Shown in pieces: positions 14,148 to 29,277 of a stretch of DNA of 64,000 bases; positions within the stretch are counted from its first letter, which is position 1; the number at the start of each line of letters is the position of its first letter. The translations under genes were made by a program, and so were the position numbers. The notes beneath the pieces are model-generated. The model had not been told where the DNA came from and did no database searches. It worked only from the letters and a program-made list of their open reading frames with translations. Where the stretch lies: the NCBI RefSeq assembly GCF_024223415.1, contig NZ_CP100500.1. One strand, written 5' to 3'. Origin of the DNA: Escherichia coli (GTDB taxonomy: Bacteria; Pseudomonadota; Gammaproteobacteria; Enterobacterales; Enterobacteriaceae).

Positions 14148-14163
14148 TTCGGCGCACTGTATG

Positions 14164-14189: not shown

Positions 14190-14366
14190 GAAATATAAAG
14201 GCGGGTAATTTTAAGGGGGCGTTGCTGTCGATATGGGGATCCACATAACGGGGCTACCTGGCTTTTTTTCCGGTTAAATGTCAATCAGGCTGGTGGGCTT
14301 TACCTGTTCGGTAGGTGTTATGATTATCGTAATACCTTTCCCCCAATGGGGTAAAAGCATCAACCG

Positions 14367-14911: not shown

Positions 14912-14987
14912 CAGGATACAACGCCGCCTGTAATCGTAACCAATTGATTTTTATGATGACGCAAATCTGCGTTATCAGTCCTCAAAG

Positions 14988-15278
14988 TTACCGCCGCAAC
15001 CGTTCCGGCTTCTTCCACTGATAAGTGTTTTTCGCGCTCTCCTGATACATCGCCACGCGTCGACGGTATGCCAGCAACTCTAGTACTCTGATTCGTATGT
15101 CGCGCATATCCACGCCGTTAAGCTCAATACCGTCACGGCGCATCACCTCCGCCACAACACGCACATAATTTTCGGCGGTCACGCTGTCCGGCTGCGTGGC
15201 CTGTTCGTCATGCTGCTGGCTGATTCCGGTAACGCGGCGGATTAATCCCAGTAGTTCGGCTTCGCTCATTCTCGTCAT
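14988..15278 (-). CDS. Hypothetical protein (96 aa) downstream of terL
   Basis: ORF start overlaps the terL stop (translational coupling geometry); no recognisable motif. Confidence 0.4.
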   Translation of the reverse strand: MTRMSEAELLGLIRRVTGISQQHDEQATQPDSVTAENYVRVVAEVMRRDGIELNGVDMRDIRIRVLELLAYRRRVAMYQESAKNTYQWKKPERLRR

Positions 15279-16936
15279 ACCCCATCAAACGCCGCAAGCC
15301 GCTCTTTGTGGCTGTCGCTCATATCGAATGCAAATTCCTCATGCTCTGCCTGGAATGTGCCAAACGCCATCAGCGCCGCAACGCTCGGGTCTATCTTGTT
15401 GGATGATTTTTTCTTGTTCGGCTTGATATTGGCGTTCGCGTCACTCTGCATCACAACATTACTCATTGACCAGGCCAGCACCGGATCACCACGATGCACA
15501 ATCACCTTCCGGTTAACAAAAACTTCGAACGATTTCGCCGCCGGACTGAAACGAAGGTATGTTTGCGGGAACGGCTCCACCTCAAATCCTGCGCCCTGTA
15601 GCTGCGTCATCAGGTGCGTGGCGTTCCATGTATCGAAGCCCACCAGCCGGATATTAAAATTTTCCGCGTCCTTCATGATGTCATCCCTGATACGGTCGTA
15701 ATCAATACAGTCGCCTGGCGTTGTGCGTATCCAGCCCGATTTTGCCCACTGGCGATAGATGGCGCGGTTTTTATTGGCGGGATTCTGTAGCTGCTGCTCC
15801 GGCAGATAATGACGGGAAACCAGCATGATGGTTTTACCAACCGGAAAGGCATAACACACGCTTGAAATATCATTTGTTGATGATAAATCCAGCCCCGCAT
15901 AGCACTCCTGCCCGTGTAAATCTTCCTCCGTGAACGTTCCGGCACACTCAGCCCATGCACCGTTACCCATCCACGGCGTAGCCCCCTGACACCAGATATT
16001 AAAGCGCTTTGTCATCATCTCCACCCACTGCGACGGAATACCCCGCGCTTTCTGGATGGTTGAGGCAAGTTTTTCACGATCGACGGAAACATCGATATTG
16101 GGATTCGCCTTTATCCACATCGCCGGATCGTCAACCTCGCTTTCATCATCCAGCTCGTAAATCATCACGAACATGGATTCATTAACCTCTTCACCATCCA
16201 GTATCTGACAGCAATAATCATAGTGCTGCTTACAGGCAGAAATAACGTTGCTTCCCGATGTGGTAATGGCGAATAACAGCCCGTCAGGACGCGCACCCAT
16301 CCCAAGTTCAAGCGCGGAATATACGCCGTTATCGGGGTGTAAATGGTATTCATCCACAATGGCAAGACTCGGGTTTGTCCCCTCAATGGTCGCCGCCTTT
16401 GCCGCCAGTGGCTTTAACAGGCTGTTGGTTTTCGGGTGTATCACCTTGTGCGCCTGAATATTTACCCGCTTTCGTAACGGTCGGGATAAAAGGCACATCT
16501 GACGCGCATCATCAAACACGATCCGCGCCTGATCACGACTCACGGCGGCGGTGTAAATATCCTGCTGCCCGTTTTCCATAACCAGAAACCAGTTAGCCAG
16601 GATAGCGGCGACCGTGGATTTGGCATTTTTTCGCGGTACTTCAATGAATGCGCTGGTGTATTTGCGCCGTCCGGTGGACTTAACCTTAAAGCCCAGGATG
16701 CACGCAAAGGCGAACTGCTGCCACGGCTCCAGTTCAATGGGGCTACCGCGCATTGCACCTTTTACGTGCGGGCACACCCTGGAAAAGGCAATAAACCGCT
16801 CCACGACCTCCGGATCGAACGTGTAAAGGGGGTTTTCAAGGTCAGAAAAATACCGTTTAACAGCCTGTTTCAGTCGTTTACAGGCCGTAATTTTGCCGTT
16901 TTTTACGCCTTCTGCGTACTCATGCCAGGCGGTCAA
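15275..16936 (-). CDS. terL: Terminase large subunit
   Basis: 553 aa; N-terminal ATPase region with P-loop-like PRKNAKST, C-terminal nuclease-like region; follows terS. Confidence 0.85.
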   Translation of the reverse strand: MTAWHEYAEGVKNGKITACKRLKQAVKRYFSDLENPLYTFDPEVVERFIAFSRVCPHVKGAMRGSPIELEPWQQFAFACILGFKVKSTGRRKYTSAFIEVPRKNAKSTVAAILANWFLVMENGQQDIYTAAVSRDQARIVFDDARQMCLLSRPLRKRVNIQAHKVIHPKTNSLLKPLAAKAATIEGTNPSLAIVDEYHLHPDNGVYSALELGMGARPDGLLFAITTSGSNVISACKQHYDYCCQILDGEEVNESMFVMIYELDDESEVDDPAMWIKANPNIDVSVDREKLASTIQKARGIPSQWVEMMTKRFNIWCQGATPWMGNGAWAECAGTFTEEDLHGQECYAGLDLSSTNDISSVCYAFPVGKTIMLVSRHYLPEQQLQNPANKNRAIYRQWAKSGWIRTTPGDCIDYDRIRDDIMKDAENFNIRLVGFDTWNATHLMTQLQGAGFEVEPFPQTYLRFSPAAKSFEVFVNRKVIVHRGDPVLAWSMSNVVMQSDANANIKPNKKKSSNKIDPSVAALMAFGTFQAEHEEFAFDMSDSHKERLAAFDGV

Positions 16937-17276
16937 GCTCGTCCTCTTCCTCTGTTTCCGGTGGATTTCTGCGTCGGCTTACCGGGTCAAAACCCAGCAA
17001 AGAAGCCATTTTGATCATTATTCTTTCTGCGTCAGCCTTTGCGCTCAGGGCGGGGTTTCTGCTCTCGCTGCCCTGACTGTTAACAATGCTGAACCCGCGC
17101 GTCGCAAGGTCTTCGACGGCTTTGCGGTATAGGGAGTAGTTAACGCAATACAGCTCAAGATTGCTCCAGTCGGCGGGGGTAAGGTCTTCCCGCCCGGAAA
17201 GCTGGCGCGATTTTTCCTTCCATTGCCTGACGGCAATTTCATCCAGGTAAGCGGGGGCTTTTGGTGGTCTTGCCAT
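16920..17276 (-). CDS. terS: Terminase small subunit (P27-family-like)
   Basis: Starts MARPPKAPAYLDEIAVRQWKE...; short basic N-terminus typical of P27-type TerS; overlaps the terL start. Confidence 0.6.
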   Translation of the reverse strand: MARPPKAPAYLDEIAVRQWKEKSRQLSGREDLTPADWSNLELYCVNYSLYRKAVEDLATRGFSIVNSQGSESRNPALSAKADAERIMIKMASLLGFDPVSRRRNPPETEEEDELDRLA

Positions 17277-17321
17277 GTTCTTTTTTCGCCCAATTATTTT
17301 CAAAAAAATTCCCGTGCACAA

Positions 17322-17565
17322 AAATTTGAGCAGGCGGTCGGTTCTGGGCAGGGTCGGGTTCGTCCTGAAAACTCCCCCCCACCCCGTCCGGCTGCCTCAT
17401 CAGCGATTGCGAAAACATTCCATGACCTCGCGGTCACGGTCGGTTAATCGCTTCGCTGTGGTGCGTTTTGTGCGCCCTGTCCTGTTGGCTTTGTGCTCTG
17501 TCTCCTGTGTCTTCCATGTGTCACGCTGCCTTATCAGTCCACGTATCAGCCTGGTTTGCTCCTGT
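17322..17565. other. Candidate cos/packaging site in the HNH-terS intergenic gap
   Basis: 244-bp noncoding gap with G-rich and C-rich tracts (ggcggtcggttctgggcagggtcggg, actcccccccacccc) at the position where HK97-like cos sites lie. Confidence 0.3.
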
Positions 17566-18006
17566 TCAGTCATCATCGCCATACATCCAGTCGTTACGGT
17601 GTGCCGCCCGTTCTTCCTGCTCGCGATACATGCCCGCTTTACGGTTTGCTTTCGTGGCTGGATCTTCCCGTGTGGTCTTACGGTTGTGGCACGTCTGGCA
17701 CAATGCCTGGTGATTCCACTCAGGCCAGAAGAGAACATCATTACCGCCATCGATGGGGATAATGTGATCCACCACCACGGCGGGCGTGTATATTCCTTTT
17801 TCCAGGCAATGCGCACATAACGGGTTTTTACTCAGGTACATAGCGCGGTATTTCTCCCACTGCCTCGTATACCCTCGCTCCCTGCTGCTGCCTCTCCGGC
17901 TGTCCTGCTGCTGGCGTGCGCTGCGTCTGTGCTCCTCACACTTCCCGGACTTCACGCGCCTGTTGCAGCCTGGTTGTGTGCATCGTCTCAATGGTTGCCA
18001 CGGCAT
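17566..18006 (-). CDS. HNH endonuclease (packaging-associated)
   Basis: 146 aa with Cys-His motif (CAHCLEKG...DHIIPIDGGND...ALCQTCHNRKT); sits next to terS as in HK97-like cos phages. Confidence 0.75.
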   Translation of the reverse strand: MPWQPLRRCTQPGCNRRVKSGKCEEHRRSARQQQDSRRGSSRERGYTRQWEKYRAMYLSKNPLCAHCLEKGIYTPAVVVDHIIPIDGGNDVLFWPEWNHQALCQTCHNRKTTREDPATKANRKAGMYREQEERAAHRNDWMYGDDD

Positions 18007-18302
18007 CAGTACACCCCCACATCACGATAAACCGACCAGAGCGCGGAAATCGTCAGGGGAATTTCTTTTGTATCGGTATCGCCAAGCGTTGTCCGGTACT
18101 CGTACAGTTGCGAGATGTACATCAGGCAACCAATTTTTATTGCAGGGGTAAATTCCAGGCCGTCATCAAAACGCCTGCCAATATGCTTCTGGCATACCTC
18201 CAGCGCCGCGCTTATGTATGCCTGAATCAGTGTGTCTTCTGTGTTACCATCTATGCGGCAGTGAAGTTTGGCCTCTTCCAGGGTTATTTTTTCTGCTGTC
18301 AT
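18006..18302 (-). CDS. Head-tail connector protein (gp6-like)
   Basis: 98 aa, MTAEKITLEEAKLHCRIDGNTEDTLIQAYISAALE... typical of phage gp6-like connectors. Confidence 0.55.
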   Translation of the reverse strand: MTAEKITLEEAKLHCRIDGNTEDTLIQAYISAALEVCQKHIGRRFDDGLEFTPAIKIGCLMYISQLYEYRTTLGDTDTKEIPLTISALWSVYRDVGVY

Positions 18303-18637
18303 TTTTCTGTACCCACCTTTGCCAGAATTTCCAGCCGGGTTCTTTTCGCATCAGGTAAGGGGATCCCGATGATATTAAGCGTGCTCCCGGCAAAAGCGCC
18401 GGTAAGCACTTTCAGGCGACTGGCGGCGGATATGTCGCCACGATAGCGAACCCATACCCGAATCGTTGCAGGTGCGGTTTCTGCGCCTGCGGTCAGTAAT
18501 TCCCGTCCGCTGATCCCCTTGACCTCTGCCCAGATGGTTTCCCCTTCCGTCCATATCTGCTGGATCGCACCTGACGGCAGGCGCTGTGTGGTAAATGTCA
18601 TAATCGTCACCCGGTCCCGCATCTTTCCGGCTATCAT
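18299..18637 (-). CDS. Head closure / head-tail adaptor protein
   Basis: 112 aa; size and position (after portal, before HNH) fit the head-tail joining family. Confidence 0.5.
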   Translation of the reverse strand: MIAGKMRDRVTIMTFTTQRLPSGAIQQIWTEGETIWAEVKGISGRELLTAGAETAPATIRVWVRYRGDISAASRLKVLTGAFAGSTLNIIGIPLPDAKRTRLEILAKVGTEK

Positions 18638-19851
18638 TCGTCACCGCCCTTACTGTTCTTGCTGATTGTCACTTCCTGCTTCCATGCCTGGCTGAACTCG
18701 TCGCCACCTTCACGCGGCGGCATTCCCTCACGCTCACGGGCTTCGTTCGGATTGATGATCCCGTTCTTAATCCCTTTCTCATACGTGGCGTAACGTTCGG
18801 TAGGGGTGGCGCGTAATAAATCGGCTGAATCAAACTCAACCAGATAACGGGTACCAGGTACGGGAGAAGCCACCAGCAAAGCAGCCTTGATTTGCTGTTC
18901 GAAGTTCGCCAGCCACGGGCGCATTGTCATGGTCAGAAACGCGCGGCTTGCCTCACTGAAATTGCTGTAGGTGCTGTTGCTGTATTCCTGCAAAAAAATC
19001 GGCGAGACGTTGAACATTCGGGCGATGTCTTCAATGGTAAAGCGACGGGAGGCCAGCCATTCAGCATCCTGATTACTCATGCCCAGCTGCTGATAGCTCA
19101 TACCCCCTTCAAGGATGGGCGTTTTTCCGGCGTTTCTGGCCCCTTTGTAGCGTTCCAGTGCGGCTAATGCCTGTTTGCCCTTCACGCCGTCCAGCCATTC
19201 GCCTGACGTGATAACCCCTGCCGCCATCATGCCATCACGCATCACGCTCGCGCCGTGGCGTTGTTGGGCCAGCCCAAGCCCCAGCGATTCGCGGCAGATG
19301 GTTACAGGTGAGCGCCCCATAAAGCCGTCATCCGTGGAGTAACGAAGGTGGAGAACCTCCCACGGTAAATAGTTGCGGGTGTTTCCGGTGTAGGCGTCAG
19401 TGATGCAGTAGCGCCAGTTATGCTCACCTGTCTGCTCCACGTTCACCGACTGCGGCGGGTAAGGATGTAAAGCCACCGGAAAACCATCACGCCCCCACTG
19501 AATAACCGCATAAGCATTACCGTTTAACAGGCAGTGGCGGATCATCATTCGCTTAAACTGGTAGGGGGTTTGCCATGCGTTCGGGCGCTCGTTGAGGATG
19601 TGATCGACCGGATGAGAATCAAGCCACTCGCGGGCCTCCTTCCCCTTCTCATTGCGTACCAGGTACAGGTAACACGGCATGGTAGCCACCGCCTCAGAGA
19701 TGACCGTCACGGCGTTCATGACGGCGGGCAGTGATTCCGCTGTCCCCGATGATACGTACTCACCCGCCCCCGTGTTCGATGTGCCCGCCAGCGCCATAAA
19801 TTCATCAAGCGTCATGCTGCGCTGCTCTTTTTTTCTTCTGAAAAGCCACAT
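18634..19851 (-). CDS. Portal protein (HK97 family-like)
   Basis: 405 aa; position between protease and connectors; composition typical of HK97-type portal. Confidence 0.8.
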   Translation of the reverse strand: MWLFRRKKEQRSMTLDEFMALAGTSNTGAGEYVSSGTAESLPAVMNAVTVISEAVATMPCYLYLVRNEKGKEAREWLDSHPVDHILNERPNAWQTPYQFKRMMIRHCLLNGNAYAVIQWGRDGFPVALHPYPPQSVNVEQTGEHNWRYCITDAYTGNTRNYLPWEVLHLRYSTDDGFMGRSPVTICRESLGLGLAQQRHGASVMRDGMMAAGVITSGEWLDGVKGKQALAALERYKGARNAGKTPILEGGMSYQQLGMSNQDAEWLASRRFTIEDIARMFNVSPIFLQEYSNSTYSNFSEASRAFLTMTMRPWLANFEQQIKAALLVASPVPGTRYLVEFDSADLLRATPTERYATYEKGIKNGIINPNEAREREGMPPREGGDEFSQAWKQEVTISKNSKGGDE

Positions 19852-19852
19852 A

Positions 19853-20425
19853 TCACACCCCCGCTAAATCCACCCACCAGCGGCGATTATCCGCACGCGG
19901 CATTTTTTCGGGGTGCTGCTCATACAGGGAACGGCGGGCCAGCTCCACGCCGGAATCGGGGTAAGCCGGTACCGATGTAACGGTAATTTCGTACAGTTCC
20001 GCCACCAGCACGGTACGAACGCATGGATCTGTTGTGGTATCCCATACATCCTTACGGGAGCGAAAGCCAAAGCTCATGCCGGATATATCACCGCGTTTAA
20101 CCAGTTCGATAACGTCGCGCCCTGTACTGGTATCCGGTGGGGTCAGTTCAAAGCGTAACCCTGTTTCGTCCTCTTCCAGTTTCAGCGTGCCGGAACGGGT
20201 GCGCCCCAGTAACATGCTGTGGTCATGCTCATACAGGCCGCGAACGTCATTACCCGCCGCAAGCCATTCAGTAAACGCCCCCCGCTGGAATTTTTCGTAA
20301 AACTCACCCCATAACAGTTCTGAAAGCTTATCCCAGCGAACAACGTAGCCCGTCAGCGTACCGGCTCCGCTCGTGGTGATTTCCGATGACCGGATTTCCA
20401 TACTCTTCATAATTTTTTCACCCAT
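19853..20425 (-). CDS. Prohead maturation protease (HK97 gp4-like)
   Basis: 190 aa immediately downstream of the capsid gene. Confidence 0.75.
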   Translation of the reverse strand: MGEKIMKSMEIRSSEITTSGAGTLTGYVVRWDKLSELLWGEFYEKFQRGAFTEWLAAGNDVRGLYEHDHSMLLGRTRSGTLKLEEDETGLRFELTPPDTSTGRDVIELVKRGDISGMSFGFRSRKDVWDTTTDPCVRTVLVAELYEITVTSVPAYPDSGVELARRSLYEQHPEKMPRADNRRWWVDLAGV

Positions 20426-20464
20426 AAAACACTAAAGGGGCTTTTAAGCCCCTTCTGTATGCTG

Positions 20465-21622
20465 TTAATCGTCGTCCTGTGGCAGTTCCAGAATCTTGAT
20501 CGCGTTCGAATCCACCACGCCACCGCCTAAATATTTCTGCGTGAAAATTTTGATGAAGCCCGGCTCTGTGATGTTGTCCGGTCTGGTGCGAACACCTGTT
20601 TCGTGATCAACAATGTAGTAACCGCGTTTGAAGTCACCCAGGGCAATAACGTTATCAGGCATAAACTCCAGATATTCGACCGGAAGGCCCAGCAACGTAT
20701 CAGGATCACCCGCCTGTAAACGGTCGCGCCAGATGTAATCACCGTTCGCGTTCTTCACCTTCTGAAGTTTTGCCGCCGTTGTGGAGTTAACCACCCATAC
20801 CGCGTTCTTGCGGTATTTTTTACGCAATGCAAATTTCAGGTCGATCAGCGGGTCCGCAGATGTCCACGCCAGACCGTGAGCGGGCTTGATAACCTGCAAC
20901 GTTCCGAAGTCGCGTTCTTTGTCGCTCTTCTCTGCACGGGGGACGGATAAAAAGCCTTTTGCTTTTTTGTCACCGTCGCCCACAACCAGATCGCTTTCTT
21001 CGGTTTCCGTGAAGGTGTCGCCAATCTCGGCCGTCAGCCATGAAAGGATGTCCACATCGGAAAAATCCACGATTTCCTGTGTGGTGCGCGGGTACGCATA
21101 GACCGGATACAGCTTAATGCTCACCTCGTTAATCTGCGGGGTGCTGGTCTGTTCGCGTGCCTTACCCTCTTCACCGTGGTTAACGGTCGCACCGCCAGCG
21201 GAAACAAGCTGCTTAAACTCGTTGCTGCTGATTTTCTTCACGGTACAGATGCGGCGCATGGTGGATTCATCCGCCAGCATTCGCATGATTTCGGTGTTCA
21301 GTTCGGGGATAACGGTATAACCACCATCAGCGGGAACGCCTGTACTTAATGCGCGGGTTTCACCTGTCAGAATGTAGTTGCGTAGTTCTGCGGGGTCAGT
21401 GGTCTGACTGCTTTTACCTGGCTTGCTGCGCTCTTCGTCTGCAATGGCTTCAAGGCGGGAAATGTCTTTATCGAGGGATTCAGCTTTAGCGCGTAATTCA
21501 TCAAATTTTGCGCCCTCAGCATCGTTAAGACTGCGGTTTTCTTTTTCCGCGTTCTCCAGCATGTCGCGCATCTGATTTTTAATGGCGGTTTTCTGCTGGC
21601 GTAATTCGATTATTCTCGGCAT
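20465..21622 (-). CDS. Major capsid protein, HK97 fold, with N-terminal coiled-coil scaffold (delta) domain
   Basis: ATG at 21622 gives MPRIIELRQQKTAIKNQMRDMLENAE... (delta domain) then capsid body; the longer ORF to 21667 would read through a terminator hairpin. Confidence 0.85.
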   Translation of the reverse strand: MPRIIELRQQKTAIKNQMRDMLENAEKENRSLNDAEGAKFDELRAKAESLDKDISRLEAIADEERSKPGKSSQTTDPAELRNYILTGETRALSTGVPADGGYTVIPELNTEIMRMLADESTMRRICTVKKISSNEFKQLVSAGGATVNHGEEGKAREQTSTPQINEVSIKLYPVYAYPRTTQEIVDFSDVDILSWLTAEIGDTFTETEESDLVVGDGDKKAKGFLSVPRAEKSDKERDFGTLQVIKPAHGLAWTSADPLIDLKFALRKKYRKNAVWVVNSTTAAKLQKVKNANGDYIWRDRLQAGDPDTLLGLPVEYLEFMPDNVIALGDFKRGYYIVDHETGVRTRPDNITEPGFIKIFTQKYLGGGVVDSNAIKILELPQDDD

Positions 21623-21660
21623 AAAAAAAAGTCCTGGGGTTAAGTAAGGAACTCCAGGAC
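21623..21660 (-). terminator. Intrinsic terminator on the minus strand directly abutting the capsid start codon
   Basis: Minus strand reads gtcctgg-(16 nt)-ccaggac followed by TTTTTTTT, then ATG of the capsid gene. Confidence 0.45.
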
Positions 21661-21837
21661 GCGGCAAAAACTCAACCGTTTTTCATAAGGAAATCAGCAA
21701 TCGCACCGATCGTTTTCCCGCCTGGTAATGAATATTGGCGAGCACATTAACAGGCGGGAAAGTGGCCCCAGCGTCCTGGCACCACGGGCGAGAATAATCA
21801 TGATTCAGTTCGAGTAAAATATGCCGATCCGCTCAGT

Positions 21838-21896
21838 GAACAACCTGGAACAACCACGAACAAATAATTTACAAAACCTGAAAAAATAAATAAACT
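21838..21896 (+). promoter_or_regulatory. Promoter of the 157-aa gene with phased upstream repeats: GAACAA x3 at 10-bp spacing, then -35 TTTACA, 17-bp spacer, -10 TAAACT
   Basis: GAACAA at 21838, 21848, 21858; TTTACA 21868-21873; TAAACT 21891-21896; AGGAGG SD at 21924 and ATG at 21938. Confidence 0.45.
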
Positions 21897-21937
21897 GTTC
21901 CGTACATTTTCTGCTCGTTAATCAGGAGGAACGAACT

Positions 21938-22411
21938 ATGTCAGAAAATGAACTGAAAAAAGCAATGTTCATTCAGCAACGATTGCAGATTCTCCACCTT
22001 GGTAAACACTATGATGAGTTCAGTGATTCTTACGTGTATGCCTGGGAGGCAGATGTTTATCCTTTCTTGCAGGATGGCGACGGAAGTATTCCTGCTCGCC
22101 CACATGAAATTTACGAAGAGTTTTTCGGCACATCTAAAAACAAAGCCAAAAAGATATACGATCGTCTGTGCAAAGCCTGGCACGACCAGGAGGCACTCAC
22201 ATTCTATAAACTAGAAAGTGAATATGGTGTAACAAGTAGCAGCATGCACAGATGGACACGAAGTGATTTACTTCACATCTGCCGCTATCTGTATCTTGAG
22301 GGGTGTTTCGATAAAGATTTCTGGGAAACATTACTGGAAAACGGAAAATGCCCAAGCGAAGCACTTTACCTTAGCGATGAATTTAATCGCGATACAGAGA
22401 TCGACTTCTAA
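21938..22411 (+). CDS. Hypothetical protein (157 aa), stand-alone opposite-strand cargo gene
   Basis: Strong SD and promoter, own bidirectional terminator; only plus-strand gene inside the structural/regulatory part of the island; no recognisable domain. Confidence 0.65.
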   Translation: MSENELKKAMFIQQRLQILHLGKHYDEFSDSYVYAWEADVYPFLQDGDGSIPARPHEIYEEFFGTSKNKAKKIYDRLCKAWHDQEALTFYKLESEYGVTSSSMHRWTRSDLLHICRYLYLEGCFDKDFWETLLENGKCPSEALYLSDEFNRDTEIDF

Positions 22412-22448
22412 AAAAATGGCCTGGAAAATACCAGGCCATTATTATTCT
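22411..22448. terminator. Bidirectional intrinsic terminator between convergent genes
   Basis: atggcctgg-aaaata-ccaggccat flanked by an A-run on one side and T-rich sequence on the other. Confidence 0.55.
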
Positions 22449-22695
22449 ACCGTTTCACGGGATCACGCATTCTGCGCCTTATTTTCCACAGATATTCGAT
22501 CATCGCTTCCACCTGCTCACGGTTGGTTGCGAAAATTTCCCCGGTCAGTGAGCTACGCAGAAAATCATGATGATCCACAAAAAATAACGCATCGGAAGAA
22601 AGCAGCCGGAGATATTTTTTTGCTGTCGTGCTTTCCAGATCATCAAAATCATGAAGCTTTTTATGTTGCTGGACTTCTTCAAATGTCACTGGCAT
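22447..22695 (-). CDS. Hypothetical protein (about 82 aa)
   Basis: Internal ATG (MPVTFEEVQQHKKLHDF...) downstream of the PerC-like gene. Confidence 0.45.
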   Translation of the reverse strand: MPVTFEEVQQHKKLHDFDDLESTTAKKYLRLLSSDALFFVDHHDFLRSSLTGEIFATNREQVEAMIEYLWKIRRRMRDPVKR

Positions 22696-22740
22696 GTTTC
22701 CTCCTGCTACCACGATACCAGAAACAGTTAACAACCGTTA

Positions 22741-23022
22741 TCAATTATCCCCTTTTTTAGGGTAGTTCCTGAACATCTCACCGCCAGGCTTCTGTAAGCC
22801 CATCCCGGTATGTGTGCGGTTTATGGCCTCTTTCAGTATTCCGAAATTATCCGGTATGACTGGTGGGCGTGCTGCCTTACGGATACATTCCGCGCGACGC
22901 TTTGCCACTTGTTCGCGCTCCTTGTCAGTGCTCACCAGCCACATAACATCAGCCCATCGCGCGGCCGCCCTCCGGTAAAATCCTTTCGCCTCCAGTTCCT
23001 CCGCTATCCGGTCATGTACCAT
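22741..23022 (-). CDS. PerC-family-like transcriptional regulator (tentative)
   Basis: About 93 aa from internal ATG: MVHDRIAEELEAKGFYRRAAARWADVMW...; the EAxGxxRRAAxxW motif resembles PerC-type activators. Confidence 0.4.
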   Translation of the reverse strand: MVHDRIAEELEAKGFYRRAAARWADVMWLVSTDKEREQVAKRRAECIRKAARPPVIPDNFGILKEAINRTHTGMGLQKPGGEMFRNYPKKGDN

Positions 23023-23032
23023 CGTCACCCCC

Positions 23033-23443
23033 TCAGAACGGAATATCATCACCGTAAGGGTCATCGCCTCCCGCTGGTGGCTGATTACCCTGTGTGCCTG
23101 TGGTTTTGCGTCTGTTCCCACCAGGACGTGCCGCACGCGCACTGATTACGCTGTCTGCGATAACCTGCCAGCCCTGCCGCGTTTCCCCGTTCTGTCCGGT
23201 CCACTGGCTGACCTGCATCGTGCCGGATACGCTGGCAACGTCGCCTTTTTGATGTTTAGCCAGAAAGTCGGCCTGTTTGCCAAATGCGATGACCGATAAC
23301 CATAACGTCGCCTGTCCGTCCTGTGCCTGGCCGCATGGTAAAGATACCGCCATACGCGCCAGCGTCATCGGTGTACCCTTACTGGTCTGTTTTACCTGCG
23401 GGTCGTCCACCAGCCGCCCGTAAGCTGCAATTTGTGCTGTCAT
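23033..23443 (-). CDS. ssb: Single-stranded DNA-binding protein
   Basis: 136 aa with OB-fold-like core and acidic C-terminal tail ending DDIPF. Confidence 0.85.
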   Translation of the reverse strand: MTAQIAAYGRLVDDPQVKQTSKGTPMTLARMAVSLPCGQAQDGQATLWLSVIAFGKQADFLAKHQKGDVASVSGTMQVSQWTGQNGETRQGWQVIADSVISARAARPGGNRRKTTGTQGNQPPAGGDDPYGDDIPF

Positions 23444-23452
23444 ATTGCCACC

Positions 23453-23758
23453 TCAGTGAAGCGATCCGGCGTTGTTCTTTTTCATCTCTTCCATCATTTT
23501 TTCAGTGAGCATTACGCACTGAAAACCCATGTTTTTGATGTCTACGGGTTTCATGCCTTTGTCAGTGGATATCACAGGCAGAATATCCTGATACACATCG
23601 CCGCCAGGGTAACTAAGCACACAAAGCGCCCATGATGCCACGGGTGAGGATCCTTGGTCTGTTTCAACCCACCAGCCTGGTGTAGCTGCGCTTATTTGCA
23701 GAATCGTGATCCGTCCGTTGTGCTTGTAAAATTTTTCACCACATTTTGGTTCGCTCAT
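23453..23758 (-). CDS. Hypothetical protein (101 aa)
   Basis: ORF in operon context between ssb and the ori region. Confidence 0.4.
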   Translation of the reverse strand: MSEPKCGEKFYKHNGRITILQISAATPGWWVETDQGSSPVASWALCVLSYPGGDVYQDILPVISTDKGMKPVDIKNMGFQCVMLTEKMMEEMKKNNAGSLH

Positions 23759-24006
23759 GCTTCCACCTCTCCGGTTTTAACGTTGATGGTTGTCACCTGT
23801 TCCGCTCCGGCAATCTCCCGTTCTGTCAGCGTGGCAAAATTTGCCGCTACCGTTGTCATGAATGCGCTTATCAGTTCGGGATGTGCTTTCGCGTATCCTT
23901 CTCCCGCGTGGCGGTCTATCGTTCTGATTGCCACCTTTAAGGCGTGCTCTGTCATGTCTAACGCTTTATATTTTGGCGCTGTCTTATCTCTGGTTTTTCT
24001 GTTCAT
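23755..24006 (-). CDS. Hypothetical protein (start uncertain)
   Basis: ORF 23755-24036 trimmed to an internal ATG because its 5' end runs into the iteron array. Confidence 0.3.
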   Translation of the reverse strand: MNRKTRDKTAPKYKALDMTEHALKVAIRTIDRHAGEGYAKAHPELISAFMTTVAANFATLTEREIAGAEQVTTINVKTGEVEA

Positions 24007-24225
24007 TCCCCACCACTCCCCACTTTTGCTCCCCACTTTTTAAATTCCCCACTTGCTCCCCACCTCGTTTTTTGAGTGAATCTAATGCTTTGTTTTTCAT
24101 TGCGTTTTTTGCTCCCCACTTTTTTGGATGTATACAGGTGGGAAAGTGGGGAATTATGTTTCAATTTTGTTAAATTCCCCACTCTCCCCACTTTTACTAC
24201 CCACTTTTTACAGTGGGTAAACATC
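24005..24225. repeat. Iteron array (at least 8 copies of tccccactttt-like units in both orientations around an AT-rich core); putative replication origin
   Basis: Repeats ctccccactttt, gctccccacttttt, attccccact and inverted gtgggaaagtgggg, immediately 3' of the primase/helicase gene. Confidence 0.6.
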
Positions 24226-25614
24226 ATCCCCATCGACACAAATCACGCCGTCTTTTTCCAGCTTGTACAGCCAGCGCCGGAAGTGCTTCATCTCATACCC
24301 CAGCTTTTTCATATCGTCGCGGAGAAGGGCGATAGTGCATGGCTCTTTGTGTGCCGTCCGCGTTCTGATGCACTGCCATAGCGCGGCGTGATTCTCCGAT
24401 TTGTTGCCTGCTTCCTCGATGCGCTCCAGTTCAGCAGGGGCGCGGGGAACGTCAATCACCACCATAGACACAATCTCTTCGCCATCTGTATCGGTGAACA
24501 CCTCCACGCTTTTAAGGTCGTATGCACTCTCTTTTGGCTCCTCTGCGTCCTTCATCTTCGTACACGCCGCCACCAGTGCTGTAACGTCTGAATTTTCCCG
24601 GCTGATTCGGTACTCTGCATCAAGCGCGGCACGGAATGCGCTGGAACCACGCGCCCCCTTTGTTTCATCCTTGCCGGAATGGTGAACCACCAGCACCGTG
24701 GCCCCTGTGGCCTGCTTTATCGCGTCACACCCCTGGATAAATGCGCCCATATCACGGGAATCATTTTCATCATTCCCACCAAAGCAACGGGCCAGTGTGT
24801 CGATCACAATCAGCCGCACATTTTCGCCCGTTCTGCTCTTAACAAGTCCGGCAGTCCTGATAACCTGCTCCACATAGTCAGGCGATGCAGGGAAAACAGG
24901 CGCGTTAATGATGCACAAATCTGTAACCACCTTGTCGTGGGTTATCTCCCACGCCTTAACGCGGCGTTTTACGCCCATGCTGCCTTCACCAGCGATATAG
25001 ATAACCGCCCCCTTACTTACCCTGCGGCCTCCCCATGCCATACCTGTGGCAACATGGCACGACCAGGAAATGGCGAGGAACGATTTATAAGAACCGCTGG
25101 CCCCGTAGGTGCTGCATAATGACTCAGCCGGAATAAGCCCCTTAATTACGTAGCTTTGCTGCGCGTCGAATCCCTCAGAACCCCATGAGATGGGAAGCGT
25201 GATTTTTCGCTTTCCGCCATTCATGACCAGGCTTTCCCCTCTCTCCCATGTTTCCCGTAGTCGTGGTAGCTGGTCGCTCCAGTCCTCCAGCAGTTCGAAA
25301 TTTTCAGAAAGTAGCCGCGCCTCCTGGACTCCGGCGATCGCCAGTTTTGTGGCAATGGTCAGCATCTGCATATCGTCCAGGTTTCCGGCGCGTATGACCT
25401 TTGCCCTGTATCGTCCTTCATCAACAATCTGTAAGTTGTCCAGTTCGCTTAACTGATAACGGCCCAGGTAAACCGGAGGGATGGGATCGCCTGCTTTTTT
25501 GGCCTGTGCAATCATGTAATGTTCTGCAAAGGAGTGAGCATTATCACCCGCAAAAATAACCGCCTCAGTGTGTTTATCTTTCGGTAACAGTTTTACGTTC
25601 GGTGCAAGTTTCAT
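24208..25614 (-). CDS. Replication protein: primase-like N-terminus plus RecA/DnaB-like AAA ATPase (pri-rep)
   Basis: 468 aa; Walker A-like IYIAGEGSMGVKRR and Walker B-like LIVIDTLARCFG, C-terminal winged-helix-like tail. Confidence 0.75.
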   Translation of the reverse strand: MKLAPNVKLLPKDKHTEAVIFAGDNAHSFAEHYMIAQAKKAGDPIPPVYLGRYQLSELDNLQIVDEGRYRAKVIRAGNLDDMQMLTIATKLAIAGVQEARLLSENFELLEDWSDQLPRLRETWERGESLVMNGGKRKITLPISWGSEGFDAQQSYVIKGLIPAESLCSTYGASGSYKSFLAISWSCHVATGMAWGGRRVSKGAVIYIAGEGSMGVKRRVKAWEITHDKVVTDLCIINAPVFPASPDYVEQVIRTAGLVKSRTGENVRLIVIDTLARCFGGNDENDSRDMGAFIQGCDAIKQATGATVLVVHHSGKDETKGARGSSAFRAALDAEYRISRENSDVTALVAACTKMKDAEEPKESAYDLKSVEVFTDTDGEEIVSMVVIDVPRAPAELERIEEAGNKSENHAALWQCIRTRTAHKEPCTIALLRDDMKKLGYEMKHFRRWLYKLEKDGVICVDGDDVYPL

Positions 25615-25898
25615 TTCTTACCCCCTGCGACCAGCATTTCACGGATTTTGCGGATATAACTTGCAGCACGTTTCTGATTAACGGCTTTACGATGGCCCAC
25701 CAGCGTGAAATCACGCCGGAACTGATAAACAGGCATAACGCAGTCATATTCGTAGCCTTCACGGCGGTAAGTTACGCGACGTTCCTCCACGCTTTTAATT
25801 GTTACCGTGCCGCCGTAGTTATCTTTGAAAATATCGCCGGGGCGGATTTCAGGCCGAGCGGGGCCGCTGGCAGTAAAGCCAGAATATTTAAGTTTCAT
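25611..25898 (-). CDS. Hypothetical protein (95 aa)
   Basis: Stop overlaps the pri-rep start; basic protein. Confidence 0.4.
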   Translation of the reverse strand: MKLKYSGFTASGPARPEIRPGDIFKDNYGGTVTIKSVEERRVTYRREGYEYDCVMPVYQFRRDFTLVGHRKAVNQKRAASYIRKIREMLVAGGKK

Positions 25899-25903
25899 TA
25901 TTT

Positions 25904-26137
25904 TTATTCTCCGGTGTGCTGTTCTTTATATCTGTCGTGCAATAGGTCTATTTCCTGCAACTCTGTTATTACAGGTTCAAGGAGAGTTATCAGAGATTTA
26001 ATAATCCGCGCATTCTTTACATCACGCTCATTATCGCCAAATGTATCTGGATACATTTGCAATATTTCGTACATACCTTCAGCGTAAGCAATGGCACTAA
26101 ATGCGCGGTCTATTGTTTCGAGGTAAATATCACGCAT
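25904..26137 (-). CDS. Hypothetical protein (77 aa)
   Basis: Compactly spaced ORF in the same operon. Confidence 0.4.
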   Translation of the reverse strand: MRDIYLETIDRAFSAIAYAEGMYEILQMYPDTFGDNERDVKNARIIKSLITLLEPVITELQEIDLLHDRYKEQHTGE

Positions 26138-26138
26138 A

Positions 26139-26387
26139 TTAATCCCCGTCCGTCGTTTTTCTTAAAATAACCTCTGTCACGAAATCAGCATAATCGGCGG
26201 CGATATTCAGTACATCAAGCCCCGTTGATTTATATTCTCTCGTGGAAAGTAAGAAAAAAGCCGCTCTAATAAGCTCTGGCATTGACGAAAGCGCATCAGC
26301 CGCATCATCAGGAACGCCGGAAAATTCCTGTTTCAGGGAATTAAAACGATCATCACGCATAACCCCCCCCATTTTCACAATCAGCAA
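26139..26387 (-). CDS. Hypothetical protein (82 aa)
   Basis: Compactly spaced ORF in the same operon. Confidence 0.35.
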   Translation of the reverse strand: MLIVKMGGVMRDDRFNSLKQEFSGVPDDAADALSSMPELIRAAFFLLSTREYKSTGLDVLNIAADYADFVTEVILRKTTDGD

Positions 26388-26634
26388 TCAGGATGGCTTT
26401 GGCCTCATTCAGTGCCATATCAGCGGTAAGCTGTGCGTAGGCCAGCAAATGCGGGATTATTGCCCCTGTATATTCCGTCTCTCTGGTAATGTGTTTTTCT
26501 GCGGTTGCTGCCGTGCATGAAATATCAATCAGCGCGTGCATCAGCGTTTTGATGGCTTCGGCGGCTGCGTCCGGACGGGTGTTATTGCACATGGCACACC
26601 TCCTGACGGATACGGGCGGCGAATACAGCGACAC
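26353..26634 (-). CDS. Hypothetical protein (start uncertain)
   Basis: ORF overlapping its neighbours; probable start at an internal ATG. Confidence 0.3.
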   Translation of the reverse strand: MSLYSPPVSVRRCAMCNNTRPDAAAEAIKTLMHALIDISCTAATAEKHITRETEYTGAIIPHLLAYAQLTADMALNEAKAILIADCENGGGYA

Positions 26635-26780
26635 AACCGGACGGGCAACGGTTACGCGCTTCGCGTTCCGTCCAGGCGGTCACGTGGATAATTTGAGATT
26701 CTCCGGCACTCAGTGCCAGAAAACGCCACACAAAGGCGGTTTGTGTGTGCGCTAGTCGTGGGGTATGCTGTGTTCCAGCC
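26582..26780 (-). CDS. Hypothetical small protein (about 66 aa), first gene of the leftward early operon
   Basis: C-terminal part of spurious 267-aa ORF, from ATG near 26780: MAGTQHTPRLAHTQTAFVWRF...; divergent from the RHH gene. Confidence 0.35.
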
Positions 26781-26867
26781 ATAATCGTTACTCCTGTTAA
26801 CGGTTTGGTTAGACGCCCTGCATGTGTTACAGCACTGCGGGGCGTTGTCTTTTTAACGGCTTTCGTG

Positions 26868-26917
26868 ATAGGGTGTACACCTATCAAGCAAAAAAATAAC
26901 GCTATAGGTGTACACAT
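26868..26917. promoter_or_regulatory. Two operator-like palindromes centred on GTGTACAC in the divergent regulatory region
   Basis: atagggtgtacacctat (26868-26884) and tataggtgtacacat (26903-26917); the second overlaps the RHH start codon. Confidence 0.45.
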
Positions 26918-27110
26918 GTCAACAGTTATTAAGCGAGATAAAAAACCAAAGGGAACAGGAAAAGCCCCCCCATTCCATATGCGAATAGCTCCAGAACTGA
27001 AAGAGCAGTTTGATAATGAGGCCAGCAATGATGGGGTAAGCCTAGCCAACTGGCTTAAAGAGTTGGGACGCAGTGAACTGAAGCGGCGCGGTATAGAACC
27101 CAAAGGTTGA
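26916..27110 (+). CDS. Ribbon-helix-helix (Arc/MetJ-like) DNA-binding protein; candidate island repressor
   Basis: About 64 aa from internal ATG: MSTVIKRDKKPKGTGKAPPFHMRIAPELKEQFDNEASNDGVSLANWLKELG; only regulator on the plus strand, divergent from the early operon. Confidence 0.5.
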   Translation: MSTVIKRDKKPKGTGKAPPFHMRIAPELKEQFDNEASNDGVSLANWLKELGRSELKRRGIEPKG

Positions 27111-27143
27111 TAGCCCACCAGCAAGCCAGGACACTGATCACAT

Positions 27144-27171
27144 TGGCCACCGTGACAGGTGGCCTTTTCTT
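27144..27171 (+). terminator. Intrinsic terminator after the RHH gene
   Basis: ggccacc-gtgaca-ggtggcc followed by ttttcttt. Confidence 0.5.
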
Positions 27172-27437
27172 TGCCCGTTATCCGGCAATTGTGGCGCTTC
27201 GCCACACGGTTGATATAATCCCACTGCTCATATTCATTTTTTGCGCAGCAGGTAAATTGTTCAGAAAGGCGGCTCCTTATCGGGGCCGCTTTTTTTATGC
27301 CTGAAAAACCGCGATTTTGTTGTTTTTCAGTTTCACAAGGCCGAACGAAGCCCCGCCCCTGTTCCGGCGTATATCCAGTCTTCATGGTTAAATCTCTGTA
27401 TTAGTGGATGGGTGGCGGCTGTGTGCCGCCAGTCTTT

Positions 27438-27626
27438 TTAGTGAACTGCCTCGCAGCTTTCCTTCCATGCCAGAACTTCGGATAAAGACCAGCCAACGGA
27501 ACGACCGCCCAGCTTACGCCGTGATGGGAATTGTCCGGCCTTTTCCAGGCGGTAGCGGCATGAGCGGCTAAGCCCTGTTAGCTTTTCGCATTCTTTTTCA
27601 CGTATAAAACGATCAGTGCTTAACAC
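27438..27626 (-). CDS. alpA: AlpA-family phage transcriptional regulator / excisionase-like
   Basis: 62 aa, LTGLSRSCRYRLEKAGQFPSRRKLGGRSVGWSLSEVLAW matches the AlpA/Xis HTH pattern; adjacent to int. Confidence 0.75.
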   Translation of the reverse strand: MLSTDRFIREKECEKLTGLSRSCRYRLEKAGQFPSRRKLGGRSVGWSLSEVLAWKESCEAVH

Positions 27627-27908
27627 TATTGCCCCCTTTCGTTTCTTAAAGAGTTATTTCGTGTTCTATTGCGTTGGTATGTGTCTGATTGTGTCAGGGT
27701 GATTCAGAGTTGGCAAATGTTGATGGCGGGTATTTTACAGAAACGGGGTGATTTTAATAAAAAACATTTTAATTCAGTATTATGCAAAGGCATAAAATCT
27801 CGTTTCATGCCTTTTTTCTCACTATTTAAAGCGTTATTCGCTAATGTATAAAAAACCAGTTGAGCATTAAAAATCAGCAACTTATAAATCTGTATATTTT
27901 TTGGCCTC

Positions 27909-27954
27909 TTGTTCGTGGTTGTTTCACGTTGTTGCGTATTGTTGCACGTTGTAT
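27909..27954 (-). promoter_or_regulatory. Five 10-bp-phased direct repeats (TTGTT on plus strand = AACAA on minus) between int and alpA
   Basis: TTGT motifs start at 27909, 27919, 27929, 27939, 27949. Confidence 0.5.
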
Positions 27955-28000
27955 CTGTGCACTTATCCAGTATGCGCATACTGAAAAAACACGAAAAAAA

Positions 28001-29248
28001 TTATTTTCTTCTGGCTACTGGTAGCGTGGTTACGTTTTCATGTGCTCCCGCCAGTATCTCCAACCGCTCCACCCACATATCCAGCGCATTGCGTTTCGCA
28101 TCCAGATAACGGGAATGATTATAAACTCGCTGCATTCCTGGCATCTGGTGGCCTGTAAGCTGCTCCACGACATGCGGATCAACGCCTAAATCGTTCAGCA
28201 TGGTTGTAAAGGTGCGCCGGATGTCATGCAGTGACCAGTGAGGGTGTTTAAGCCTCCTGTGCACTAATCTGCCGTACTGCGACACGCTGGTTTCCTGTTT
28301 CACTTCCCCCAGCAATAAGTCCGTGTGCCTGTTCTGCTCCACCAGCTGCGTGACGAACGGCAGTATCGCTTCCGGTATGGGCCGGAATATGGCTACCTTC
28401 GTTTTGCTGTGCTCCTTCGGAACGGTCCAGAGCATTTCGGTAAAATCCCACTCGCCGATCTCCGATAACCTCAGTTCTACTGTCCTGCATCCGAAGACAA
28501 TCAGGAGGCGGATTAGTGCGACGTAGTAAGGGGAAAATATTTTTTTGTCCAGTGCCTGCAATAATTCGCCAAGTTCTTTGTTACTTAAGACACGCTGACT
28601 TATATCCGGTTTTTTCCCAACGTCAGCCACACTCATATCATCAAGAACGTTGCTGATTGCATAGCGCCGCTTCCGGCAGAACTTAAGCGCCTGTTTGCAT
28701 GTCTGTAGCAGGAACCCGGCGGAAACAGGGGCTTGCTTTGCCACCCGATCAAAACAGGCCAGCCAGTGCCGTAGCTCGCATTTATCCAGCGGCATAGGGC
28801 CAATGTGCTGTATTACGTGATTATTTAGCCGCTTTTTCAGTGGGTCATAATCCACACGGTTTTCCTTTGCGTACGACTCAAGCCAGTAGGTGAGCGCATC
28901 GCCAACCGTTACAGGCTTTAACGCTTCCTGTACGGTGTAATTCATCTCATGACGTGGATTTTTCCCCTCAGCCAGCCATGCGCGACACTGGGCGGCTTTT
29001 TCCCTGGCTGATTTCAGGCTCAGATCAGGATAATTTCCCAGCTTAATGCGTTCCGGTGGTGCGCCCCTTCCCGTTCCGGCCCTGTAAGTGAAATACCAGG
29101 TTAAAAGGCCGCTGGTTGAATGCCTGACGGTCAGGTTTCCACCGTCATTAAGAAAGGCTGTTTTTTGGGCGGGTGTGCCGTTGATTTTCCTTAGCTGTGT
29201 ATCACTCAGTTTGTTAAGTGCTCTGCGCATAATTTTGATTCCGGTCAT
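28001..29248 (-). CDS. int: Tyrosine-type site-specific integrase (P4-like)
   Basis: About 415 aa; N-terminal arm-binding-like region, catalytic HDIRRTF...HQMPGMQRVYNHSRY; start codon (GTG 29251 or ATG 29248/29230) abuts the 26-bp repeat. Confidence 0.9.
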   Translation of the reverse strand: MTGIKIMRRALNKLSDTQLRKINGTPAQKTAFLNDGGNLTVRHSTSGLLTWYFTYRAGTGRGAPPERIKLGNYPDLSLKSAREKAAQCRAWLAEGKNPRHEMNYTVQEALKPVTVGDALTYWLESYAKENRVDYDPLKKRLNNHVIQHIGPMPLDKCELRHWLACFDRVAKQAPVSAGFLLQTCKQALKFCRKRRYAISNVLDDMSVADVGKKPDISQRVLSNKELGELLQALDKKIFSPYYVALIRLLIVFGCRTVELRLSEIGEWDFTEMLWTVPKEHSKTKVAIFRPIPEAILPFVTQLVEQNRHTDLLLGEVKQETSVSQYGRLVHRRLKHPHWSLHDIRRTFTTMLNDLGVDPHVVEQLTGHQMPGMQRVYNHSRYLDAKRNALDMWVERLEILAGAHENVTTLPVARRK

Positions 29249-29251
29249 CAC

Positions 29252-29277
29252 AATTAACTACACCATTAACTACACCG
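29252..29277. repeat. Inner 26-bp direct repeat, right copy
   Basis: Exact match to 14122-14147. Confidence 0.8.

Follow-up and report, generated by a model that had tools for sequence, protein, structure and literature searches.

A putative Arc-like repressor, paired operators and a predicted antisense RNA at the head of the replication operon of a capsid-forming phage satellite in Escherichia coli

Introduction

In the immI region of phage P22, known from the work of Sauer and Susskind, a strong promoter has one operator between its -35 and -10 elements and another at its start site. The repressor gene has a weak promoter that opposes the strong one, and a short cis-antisense RNA (sar) covers the ribosome-binding site (RBS) in the regulated operon. 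Herein, we describe a cassette of similar layout in a stretch of 64,000 nucleotides from Escherichia coli (assembly GCF_024223415.1, contig NZ_CP100500.1), referred to below as the window. The cassette combines the gene of a small protein with a predicted ribbon-helix-helix (RHH) fold, two palindromic operators (O1 and O2) and a predicted antisense RNA, and it borders the leftward early operon of a 15.2-kb phage satellite. The immI region is the closest known system.

The two systems share small RHH repressors, and Arc of P22 is the best match of the cassette protein in both sequence and structure. The placing of the operators, the opposing weak promoter and the predicted antisense RNA over the RBS also follow the immI layout. 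Unlike P22, in which two proteins are used, the cassette would employ one protein for both sites. Its operon opens with small genes, Icd-like or other, and leads on to replication genes; searches of these leftward genes against Pfam, NCBIfam and PHROGs returned no antirepressor (Ant-like) family. The start codon of the cassette repressor is embedded in the opposing -35 element, unlike in P22, and the cassette resides in a satellite instead of a phage.

Three further systems resemble parts of the cassette. Like lambda cI, the cassette would encode an autoregulated repressor that is divergent from an early operon and has an operator overlapping its own expression signals; unlike cI, the protein is of the RHH rather than the helix-turn-helix (HTH) type, its mRNA is probably not leaderless, there are two operators instead of three, and no sign of positive autoregulation was seen. 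As in the SymR/SymE pair and other type I cis-antisense systems, an RNA of about 77-78 nt is predicted opposite the RBS of a gene for a small, possibly toxic protein, and in Rfam it matches SymR weakly over the full length. The CI RNA of satellite P4 acts on the leader of a leftward early operon, is processed from the strand of its own target and causes termination. The cassette would likewise employ a satellite small RNA on a leftward early-operon leader; unlike the P4 RNA, it is predicted to be a true antisense transcript.

The satellite itself belongs to the phage-inducible chromosomal islands (PICIs). In Staphylococcus aureus pathogenicity islands (SaPIs) and Gram-positive PICIs, the Stl and Rpr repressors match the cassette in position, orientation, divergence from the xis/replication operon and presumed role in quiescence (PMC6092414). 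Stl proteins are larger HTH repressors that are bound by helper proteins, in contrast to the 64-aa RHH protein of the cassette, and Gram-negative islands are induced through AlpA instead (PMC6092414). Induction of EcCICFT073 and EcCIEDL933 needs alpA, the transcription of which is activated by the helper, and over-expression of alpA alone induces EcCICFT073 without a helper (PMC6092414; 10.1101/2022.09.08.507074). These islands are of the same kind as the one in the window, use the same roxA-phoQ attB site and are the source of the AlpA model; here too, alpA stands beside the cassette. The published model differs in having no repressor, operator or antisense RNA, and in EcCICFT073 the slot of the RHH gene holds a YlcI/YnfO-type protein. 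The founding paper on Gram-negative PICIs found it unclear whether a global repressor exists and called the different induction strategy a mystery (PMC6092414). The full-text literature that we searched, mostly without subscription journals, held no description of an RHH protein, an operator or an antisense RNA in Gram-negative PICIs. With the cassette, the open question of the repressor becomes testable: it offers a candidate protein, exact predicted sites, natural specificity variants and a candidate antisense RNA. The same parts are present in EcCIEDL933-type islands of O157:H7, with the gene unannotated, and an analogous cassette exists in EcCICFT073.

Results and Discussion

Two putative operators lie across a pair of predicted opposing promoters

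The switch region comprises the following elements, in window positions.

26916-27110, plus strand: Arc-like RHH gene, an open reading frame (ORF) of 64 aa, with a predicted beta-strand at residues 18-25 and helices at residues 26-38 and 43-57
26868-26884: operator O1, ATAGGGTGTACACCTAT, with a 12-bp core at 26871-26882; it covers the -10 element and +1 of P_R and about +2 to +19 of P_L
26903-26917: operator O2, TATAGGTGTACACAT, with its core at 26906-26917; it lies in the 18-nt spacer of P_L, holds a Shine-Dalgarno (SD)-like AGG and abuts the ATG
26893-26922, minus strand: leftward promoter P_L, with -35 TTGACA at 26922-26917, an 18-nt spacer, -10 TATTTT at 26898-26893 and a predicted +1 at about 26885-26887
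26845-26874, plus strand: candidate rightward promoter P_R of the RHH gene, with TTGTCT at 26845-26850, 18 nt, and the extended -10 TGaTAGGGT at 26866-26874
27145-27172, plus strand: intrinsic terminator of the RHH transcript, with a stem at 27145-27164 followed by TTTTCTTT (-15.7 kcal/mol, z = -3.2)

The window contains just two copies of the motif GTGTACAC, at 26873-26880 and 26908-26915, 35 bp apart, while 0.57 copies per 64 kb are expected from shuffled sequences. By our own estimate, chance would hardly bring both copies this close together (probability roughly 1e-3 to 1e-4). The copies sit in a perfect 12-nt inverted repeat, GTGTACACCTAT / ATAGGTGTACAC, at 26873-26884 and 26904-26915. 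A preceding reading of the letters alone (the sequence-only reading) had placed palindromes at exactly the O1 and O2 coordinates, and had seen that the second overlaps the start of the RHH gene; both points are correct, with the ATG at 26916-26918 and O2 extending to 26917. The operators would be 12-bp symmetric sites of the form (A/G)GGTG-TA-CACCT, with centers 35 bp apart, bound by RHH dimers.

The same cassette recurs in about 55 related satellites of Enterobacterales and Pasteurella. Wherever flanks were inspected (E. coli, Enterobacter, metagenome contigs and the Pasteurella "phage" Pmp8), the RHH homologue adjoined the first gene of a leftward operon with a primase or helicase at its far end, and on its other side stood an integrase or alpA in most cases. 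A species-level scan added 53 loci to the homologues found first, 49 of them in Enterobacterales, and a divergent leftward ORF was present in all 49.

The promoter signals were examined across these loci. At the cassette, a promoter scan returned one sigma-70 promoter, P_L on the minus strand (10/12 matches), whose -35 element is the complement of RHH codons 1-3 (xTG TCA AC). TTGACA occupies this position in 49/55 loci, with TAnnnT 17-18 nt away in 34/55, and the geometry of P_L is the same at the E. coli 042 locus. An extended -10 element, TGnTAnnnT, lies over the left half of O1 in 40/55 loci and stands 50 nt before the start codon in 26 loci. P_R probably drives the RHH gene. P_L, predicted to be strong, and P_R, predicted to be weak, face each other with predicted starts about 4 bp apart, so RNA polymerase is expected to occupy only one of them at a time.

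A leaderless RHH transcript, as for lambda cI, had been suggested from the overlap of O2 and the ATG. The predicted +1 of P_R, at about 26881-26883, gives instead a leader of about 34 nt, in which the SD-like AGG inside O2 stands 7 nt before the ATG. An SD-like purine triplet is found at -14 to -5 in 48/55 loci, and the start codon is TTG or CTG in 13/55 loci; starts other than AUG are poorly tolerated in leaderless translation. The conserved upstream promoter, the leader with its SD-like AGG and the TTG/CTG starts thus speak against the suggestion, and the RHH mRNA is probably not leaderless.

The protein is an Arc-like ribbon-helix-helix protein

Several predictions agree that the 64-aa protein, which the sequence-only reading had named an RHH protein, has an Arc-like RHH fold. 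It matched PHROG 228, "Arc-like repressor" (E = 8e-6). When a profile of 41 homologues was compared with PDB, the best match was P22 Arc (E = 0.013), with residues 11-58 aligned to Arc 2-49; the RHH antitoxin MazE7 (E = 0.64) and Mnt (E = 0.85) came next. The sequence tie to Arc is weak but specific, with no competing fold. An AlphaFold model with a predicted local distance difference test score (pLDDT) of 79 placed helices 26-38 and 43-57 behind an extended segment. All top Foldseek matches of the model were RHH proteins: Arc came first (template modeling score, TM, 0.74-0.87), followed by NikA, CopA, CopG, ParG and AmrZ. The beta-strand was not called in this monomer model, as expected of an obligate dimer. 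In the window, the gene is monocistronic and lies between O2 and its downstream terminator. The sequence-only reading had noted a clean terminator at this point, and the stem and folding energy listed above confirm it.

In another explanation, the protein is a HicB-type antitoxin that autoregulates a toxin-antitoxin pair, with the Icd-like protein encoded by the first leftward gene perhaps acting as the toxin. Its homologues are named accordingly by the annotation pipeline PGAP, Icd-like proteins are annotated as cell-division inhibitors, and Pfam HicB was matched weakly (E = 0.0045). The Pfam match (PF05534) reached 17.3 bits against a gathering threshold of 21, however, and covered the RHH part only; NCBIfam gave no HicB match. 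The operon contains no HicA or other toxin gene, the RHH gene being monocistronic in the window, and the genes downstream of it vary between loci. Furthermore, the cassette persists in the majority of loci, in which the first leftward gene is not Icd-like. We consider a HicB-type antitoxin highly improbable.

Operator classes follow the predicted reading residues

The 10-mer abutting the start codon recurs 29-35 bp upstream, as a direct or inverted copy, in nearly all loci. The upstream copy matched at 10/10 positions in 31/54 loci, while the best match under the null averaged 6.1/10. The operators share the general form TA(A/G)GGT-NNNN-ACCTA, with outer bases common to most classes and a center that varies by locus group. 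When loci were grouped by residues 19 and 21 of the RHH protein, the following classes emerged.

Pro-His: core GTGTACAC, in 4/4 loci
Gln-Lys: core GTGGCCAC, in 4/4 loci
Gln-Arg: core GTGACCAC, in 8/8 loci
His-Lys: core GGGGCCCC, in 3/3 loci
Thr-Gln: core GTACGTAC, in 17/24 loci, plus near variants
Ala-Gln: core GTAC(G/A)(C/T)AC, in 5/7 loci
Leu/Met-Asn: core GTCTATAC, in 2/3 loci
Ile-Ser: core GTCCATAC, in 1/1 locus

There are thus at least eight reader/operator classes, with no cross-assignment among the eight. Mutual information with the operator was highest at residues 19, 21 and 22 (of 64), at 97-98% of the entropy of each position itself; the other variable positions of the protein shared 60-70% of their entropy with the operator. 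Pro18, Phe20 and Arg23 are invariant across homologues. Residues 19, 21 and 23 align to Gln9, Asn11 and Arg13 of P22 Arc, which are the base-contacting residues in the structure of Arc bound to its operator (1PAR). Members of one class from different genera agree at 95-100% in the operator columns and at 75-79% in the spacer between the operators.

The palindromes could also be read by AlpA or by a host protein, with the RHH gene a neighbor by accident. AlpA is the DNA-binding activator of PICIs (PMC6092414) and is encoded 330 bp away. Its sequence does not track the operator class: AlpAs at 95-100% identity pair with two different operator classes, and a single operator class pairs with AlpAs of 35-97% identity, so AlpA was rejected as the reader. 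A host factor would leave eight operator cores within one host family unexplained, and the residues that do track the operator are exactly the RHH positions predicted to read DNA. This explanation is therefore very unlikely. Two sites kept alike in each locus while the spacer drifts, a signal concentrated in the predicted reading residues and the indifference of AlpA together argue strongly that the RHH protein reads these two sites. The divergent switch that had been proposed, in which the RHH protein binds both sites and autoregulates, is supported by this covariation and by the promoter geometry. In such a complex, the two-fold beta-ribbon would read the center of the operator through residues 19 and 21, and the invariant Arg23 would read the conserved outer GGT/ACC. 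The list of readers and operators is also a compact data set on how two beta-strand residues set the specificity of an RHH protein.

Genomes with two cassettes mostly show different classes (L026/L027 in Erwinia psidii, L031/L043 in Enterobacteriaceae RIT693 and L041/L050 in Enterobacter Cy-643). This anecdotal pattern, from four genomes only, fits the coexistence of heteroimmune satellites.

The record of Pasteurella phage Pmp8 (L069, OR544139.1; 15.3 kb) carries the same cassette at 4840-5170. Its operators are GGTAATTACC and GGTATATACC, with the start ATGTCAAC and the RHH strand PQYQMRL, and a perfect TATAAT in its antisense-RNA promoter is followed by a hairpin and T-run. Although deposited as a phage, the record resembles a satellite that has been packaged.

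A conserved antisense RNA is predicted over the first leftward RBS

A second layer of control is suggested by the plus strand upstream of the operators, which faces the first leftward gene.

26582-26782, minus strand: first leftward gene, encoding an Icd-like protein of 66 aa (NCBIfam NF033153, E = 5e-18; also matched in PHROGs), with the SD AGGAG at 26797-26793
26764-26769, plus strand: -10-like hexamer TATGCT of the antisense-RNA promoter
26777-26854, plus strand: predicted cis-antisense RNA of about 78 nt, complementary to the leader, SD and start codon of the icd-like gene
26777-26810, plus strand: stem-loop 1 (SL1) of the antisense RNA, with the anti-SD CUCC in its loop
26812-26846, plus strand: stem-loop 2 (SL2), a GC-rich hairpin serving as terminator, followed by a U-run at 26847-26854

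The sequence-only reading had placed a plus-strand hairpin with a T-run at 26826-26862. Such a hairpin exists, and its coordinates are instead 26812-26846, with the U-run extending to 26854. It is predicted to be the terminator of a conserved cis-antisense RNA of about 78 nt over the RBS of the first leftward gene.

In 53/53 loci, a TAnnnT motif precedes the complement of the first leftward ATG by no more than 24 nt, and the distance is exactly 10 nt in 41 of them. The antisense RNA of the window folds at -35.9 kcal/mol (z = -5.9) and the other strand at -22.5 kcal/mol (z = -2.3). The plus strand was the more stable one in 50/50 distinct loci (-31.9 vs -20.2 kcal/mol), with median z values against shuffles of -4.5 for the plus and -2.4 for the minus strand. 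G-U pairs numbered 4.9 on the plus and 0.6 on the minus strand in these 50 loci (p = 7.6e-10). RNAalifold on a MAFFT alignment recovered SL1 and not SL2, the stem lengths of which differ; it was replaced by folding of each sequence, the comparison of strands and shuffles. Compensatory changes were found in SL1 in 10-17 of 47 sequences. SL2 occurs as 46 distinct sequences among 49 loci, and its GC-rich hairpin is kept in 48/50 distinct loci. The signature of the RNA is kept in about 50 related loci regardless of the first leftward gene, which is of the Icd-like type in some of them only.

Membership of the SymR family (RF01809) was rejected: a relaxed Rfam scan gave a full-length match of 24.7 bits against a gathering threshold of 61, the remaining hits being terminator-like noise. 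At gathering thresholds, the Rfam scan of the 64-kb window returned no family.

Proposed silencing of the replication operon and its possible override

We propose that an Arc/Mnt-like autoregulated repressor acts through O1 and O2 on the early/replication operon, that an antisense RNA adds a second layer, and that induction overrides the repressor. We assign this model a probability of roughly 0.75. The part that makes the RHH protein an autoregulated repressor of the operon from the icd-like gene to the replication genes is, on the sequence comparisons, very probably correct. Binding of the RHH protein would silence the operon of the icd-like, DUF4222, RepA helicase and SSB genes, and would keep its own synthesis low and self-limited. 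A constitutive antisense RNA of about 78 nt is predicted to pair with the first leftward gene, loop to loop, at its leader, SD and start codon, and would block translation of this gene from leaky transcripts. Induction would most likely be an override of the repressor and not its destruction. Speculatively, the helper activates alpA, and transcription from P_alpA proceeds leftward through the gap between alpA and the RHH gene, antisense across the RHH gene and P_R, and into the early operon. Such read-through from P_alpA would reconcile a repressor with the finding that AlpA is both needed and sufficient.

Several observations weigh against this model. Since alpA is required for induction in the published islands, the RHH protein cannot be the sole control. 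The distance of 35 bp between O1 and O2 corresponds to 3.3 helical turns, for which cooperative binding on the same face is not obvious, and a second site is not recognizable in a few loci (L038, L055, L062). The operator and the beta-strand codons are about 70 bp apart and are co-inherited, so covariation alone is no proof of contact. P_R fell below the threshold of the scan tool, and all promoters are consensus predictions. As for the antisense RNA, at least five T in the 9 nt after the hairpin were found in only 25/49 loci, and termination would be weak in about half.

The sequence-only reading had favored an island master repressor that a helper phage would have to inactivate. The RHH protein could thus be a repressor of the Stl kind, which a helper-phage protein must bind and inactivate before the island can excise and replicate. 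The gene is divergent from the replication operon and its operators lie on the predicted promoter, which is the layout of Stl and Rpr (PMC6092414), and the many specificity classes resemble phage immunity groups. The protein, however, consists of 64 aa of RHH only, without the sensor domain of Stl-type repressors or any extra domain that a helper protein could target. EcCICFT073 and EcCIEDL933 need alpA, and its over-expression is enough in EcCICFT073 (PMC6092414; 10.1101/2022.09.08.507074). Both prototypes have a regulator in the slot (the YlcI type in CFT073 and the present RHH protein in EDL933-type O157:H7). A helper partner cannot be inferred from sequence. We regard a master repressor of this kind as unlikely.

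Beyond the repressor model with override, a wider role can be put forward tentatively, at less than even odds. The cassette would be the missing quiescence and immunity system of Gram-negative PICIs and capsid-forming PICIs (cf-PICIs), its at least eight classes would be satellite immunity groups that allow coexistence, AlpA would flip the switch by read-through, and the YlcI/YnfO-type protein would be the equivalent in EcCICFT073.

The gene is often unannotated or probably misnamed, and a second type of regulator fills its slot in other islands

Close homologues of the RHH protein carry the RefSeq/PGAP label "toxin-antitoxin system HicB family antitoxin", which is probably a misnomer. In the window, a minus-strand ORF of 267 aa (26582-27385) runs antisense to the RHH gene. 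More than 100 genomes, of O157:H7 and other strains, have an equivalent of 198-247 aa annotated as "hypothetical protein". In the EDL933-type islands of O157:H7, the RHH ORF starts with TTG and is unannotated; in O157:H7 locus L002, the antisense ORF occupies 2719-3462 (minus strand) and the RHH gene 2828-3019 (plus strand). The TTG-start version was seen in O157:H7 strain 3384 and, at >=99% identity, in 101 genomes.

The minus-strand ORF might be taken for the real gene and the plus-strand ORF for a spurious one, given that the former is open for 267 codons and has annotated equivalents elsewhere. Only 19/55 distinct loci, however, leave it open along the entire RHH gene, with a median open stretch of 58 codons; it is not conserved between genera, and the plus frame encodes a conserved Arc-homologous protein in all 55 loci. 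By their coordinates, the two frames share third codon positions, an arrangement that leaves the antisense frame open by chance, and the antisense product, in which Ser, Leu, Arg and Cys abound, has no family match. A spurious RHH ORF is thus hardly credible; the long antisense ORF is an annotation artifact. Both the "hypothetical protein" on the wrong strand and the probable misnaming of the real gene are worth flagging for annotators.

In E. coli 042 and EcCICFT073, a YlcI/YnfO-family protein fills the slot of the RHH gene.

NC_004431.1 1380473-1380652 (L071 12473-12652): YlcI/YnfO-type gene of EcCICFT073
L003 3161-3340: YlcI/YnfO-type gene of E. coli 042

These islands have two to three copies of a site of their own, GGTGTCAGCCAC in 042 and AGGTGTGGCCCAC in CFT073. 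A leftward TTGAC(G/A) promoter has one copy of the site in its spacer and another at its start, and the antisense-RNA layout is alike. The repeat and the N-terminal strand of the protein both differ between 042 and EcCICFT073. A profile comparison with the RHH family gave an hhalign probability of about 1% (E = 0.055); we therefore treat the YlcI/YnfO protein as a functional analogue only and claim no homology.

The host island

The island occupies 14122-29277, between phoQ and roxA, and has 26-bp direct repeats at both ends.

14122-14147: left attachment repeat, AATTAACTACACCATTAACTACACCG, 26 bp, partner of 29252-29277
29252-29277: right attachment repeat, 26 bp, partner of 14122-14147
28001-29251, minus strand: tyrosine integrase
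27438-27626, minus strand: alpA, of the PICI activator/excisionase family (Pfam Phage_AlpA, E = 5e-18), convergent with the RHH gene

It contains int, alpA, PerC, a RepA-type helicase and capsid/packaging genes. The packaging set comprises the major capsid protein, prohead protease, portal, two connector proteins, HNH, TerS and TerL; no tail genes were found in the 15.2 kb. A cf-PICI is recognized by a length of about 15 kb, att repeats, int, alpA and a replication gene, genes from capsid to terminase and the lack of a tail (10.1101/2022.09.08.507074). All of these features are present, and the island is a cf-PICI with the make-up of EcCIEDL933. The roxA/phoQ attB is also occupied by the prototype PICI EcCICFT073 and by the EDL933-type island of O157:H7. 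Genes for tRNA or tmRNA are absent from the 64-kb window. On the opposite (plus) strand, an ORF of 157 aa at 21938-22411 lies between the island's packaging and replication modules; it has no Pfam match and may be an accessory gene.

The leftward operon and the region toward alpA

The leftward operon continues beyond the icd-like gene as follows.

23033-26592, minus strand: rest of the early operon, with small ORFs and the DUF4222, helicase and SSB genes; strain CM2 carries a near-identical island
25611-25898, minus strand: DUF4222
24208-25614, minus strand: RepA-type helicase, AAA_25
23033-23443, minus strand: SSB

An attenuator within the Icd-like ORF was considered, at a minus-strand hairpin with a T-run (26747-26727, CACACAAACCGCCTTTGTGTG GCGTTTTCT). 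It was dropped, as it occurred in only 3/53 loci, of the E. coli Icd-like type.

On the other side of the cassette, 327 bp without genes (27111-27437) hold three terminator-like hairpins on the plus strand, at 27145-27172, 27269-27296 and 27413-27440. The minus strand lacks a T-run at two of the three and has a weak one at 27269-27296 (4 T in 8 nt), a terminator that is possibly bidirectional in part. The proposed leftward read-through from P_alpA would cross these hairpins. A perfect extended -10, TGATATAAT, stands at 27210-27218, about 50 nt before the second hairpin, and could give rise to a second plus-strand RNA of about 70 nt (fold -24.8 kcal/mol, z = -3.5). This promoter part is common to L001 and L005 and is absent from L002.

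In relatives, the RHH gene is followed by nothing, small ORFs, a SWIM protein or PD-T7-1, and in the window by none of these genes. The interval from the RHH gene to alpA resembles a slot for cargo that is co-expressed with the repressor. In a metagenomic relative of the E. coli type (L013), a 449-aa PD-T7-1 defence protein is encoded directly 3' of the RHH gene (2719-4068, plus strand; PADLOC E = 1e-153). With a PD-T7-1 operon in some relatives, the switch may also set the expression of defence genes in the quiescent state.

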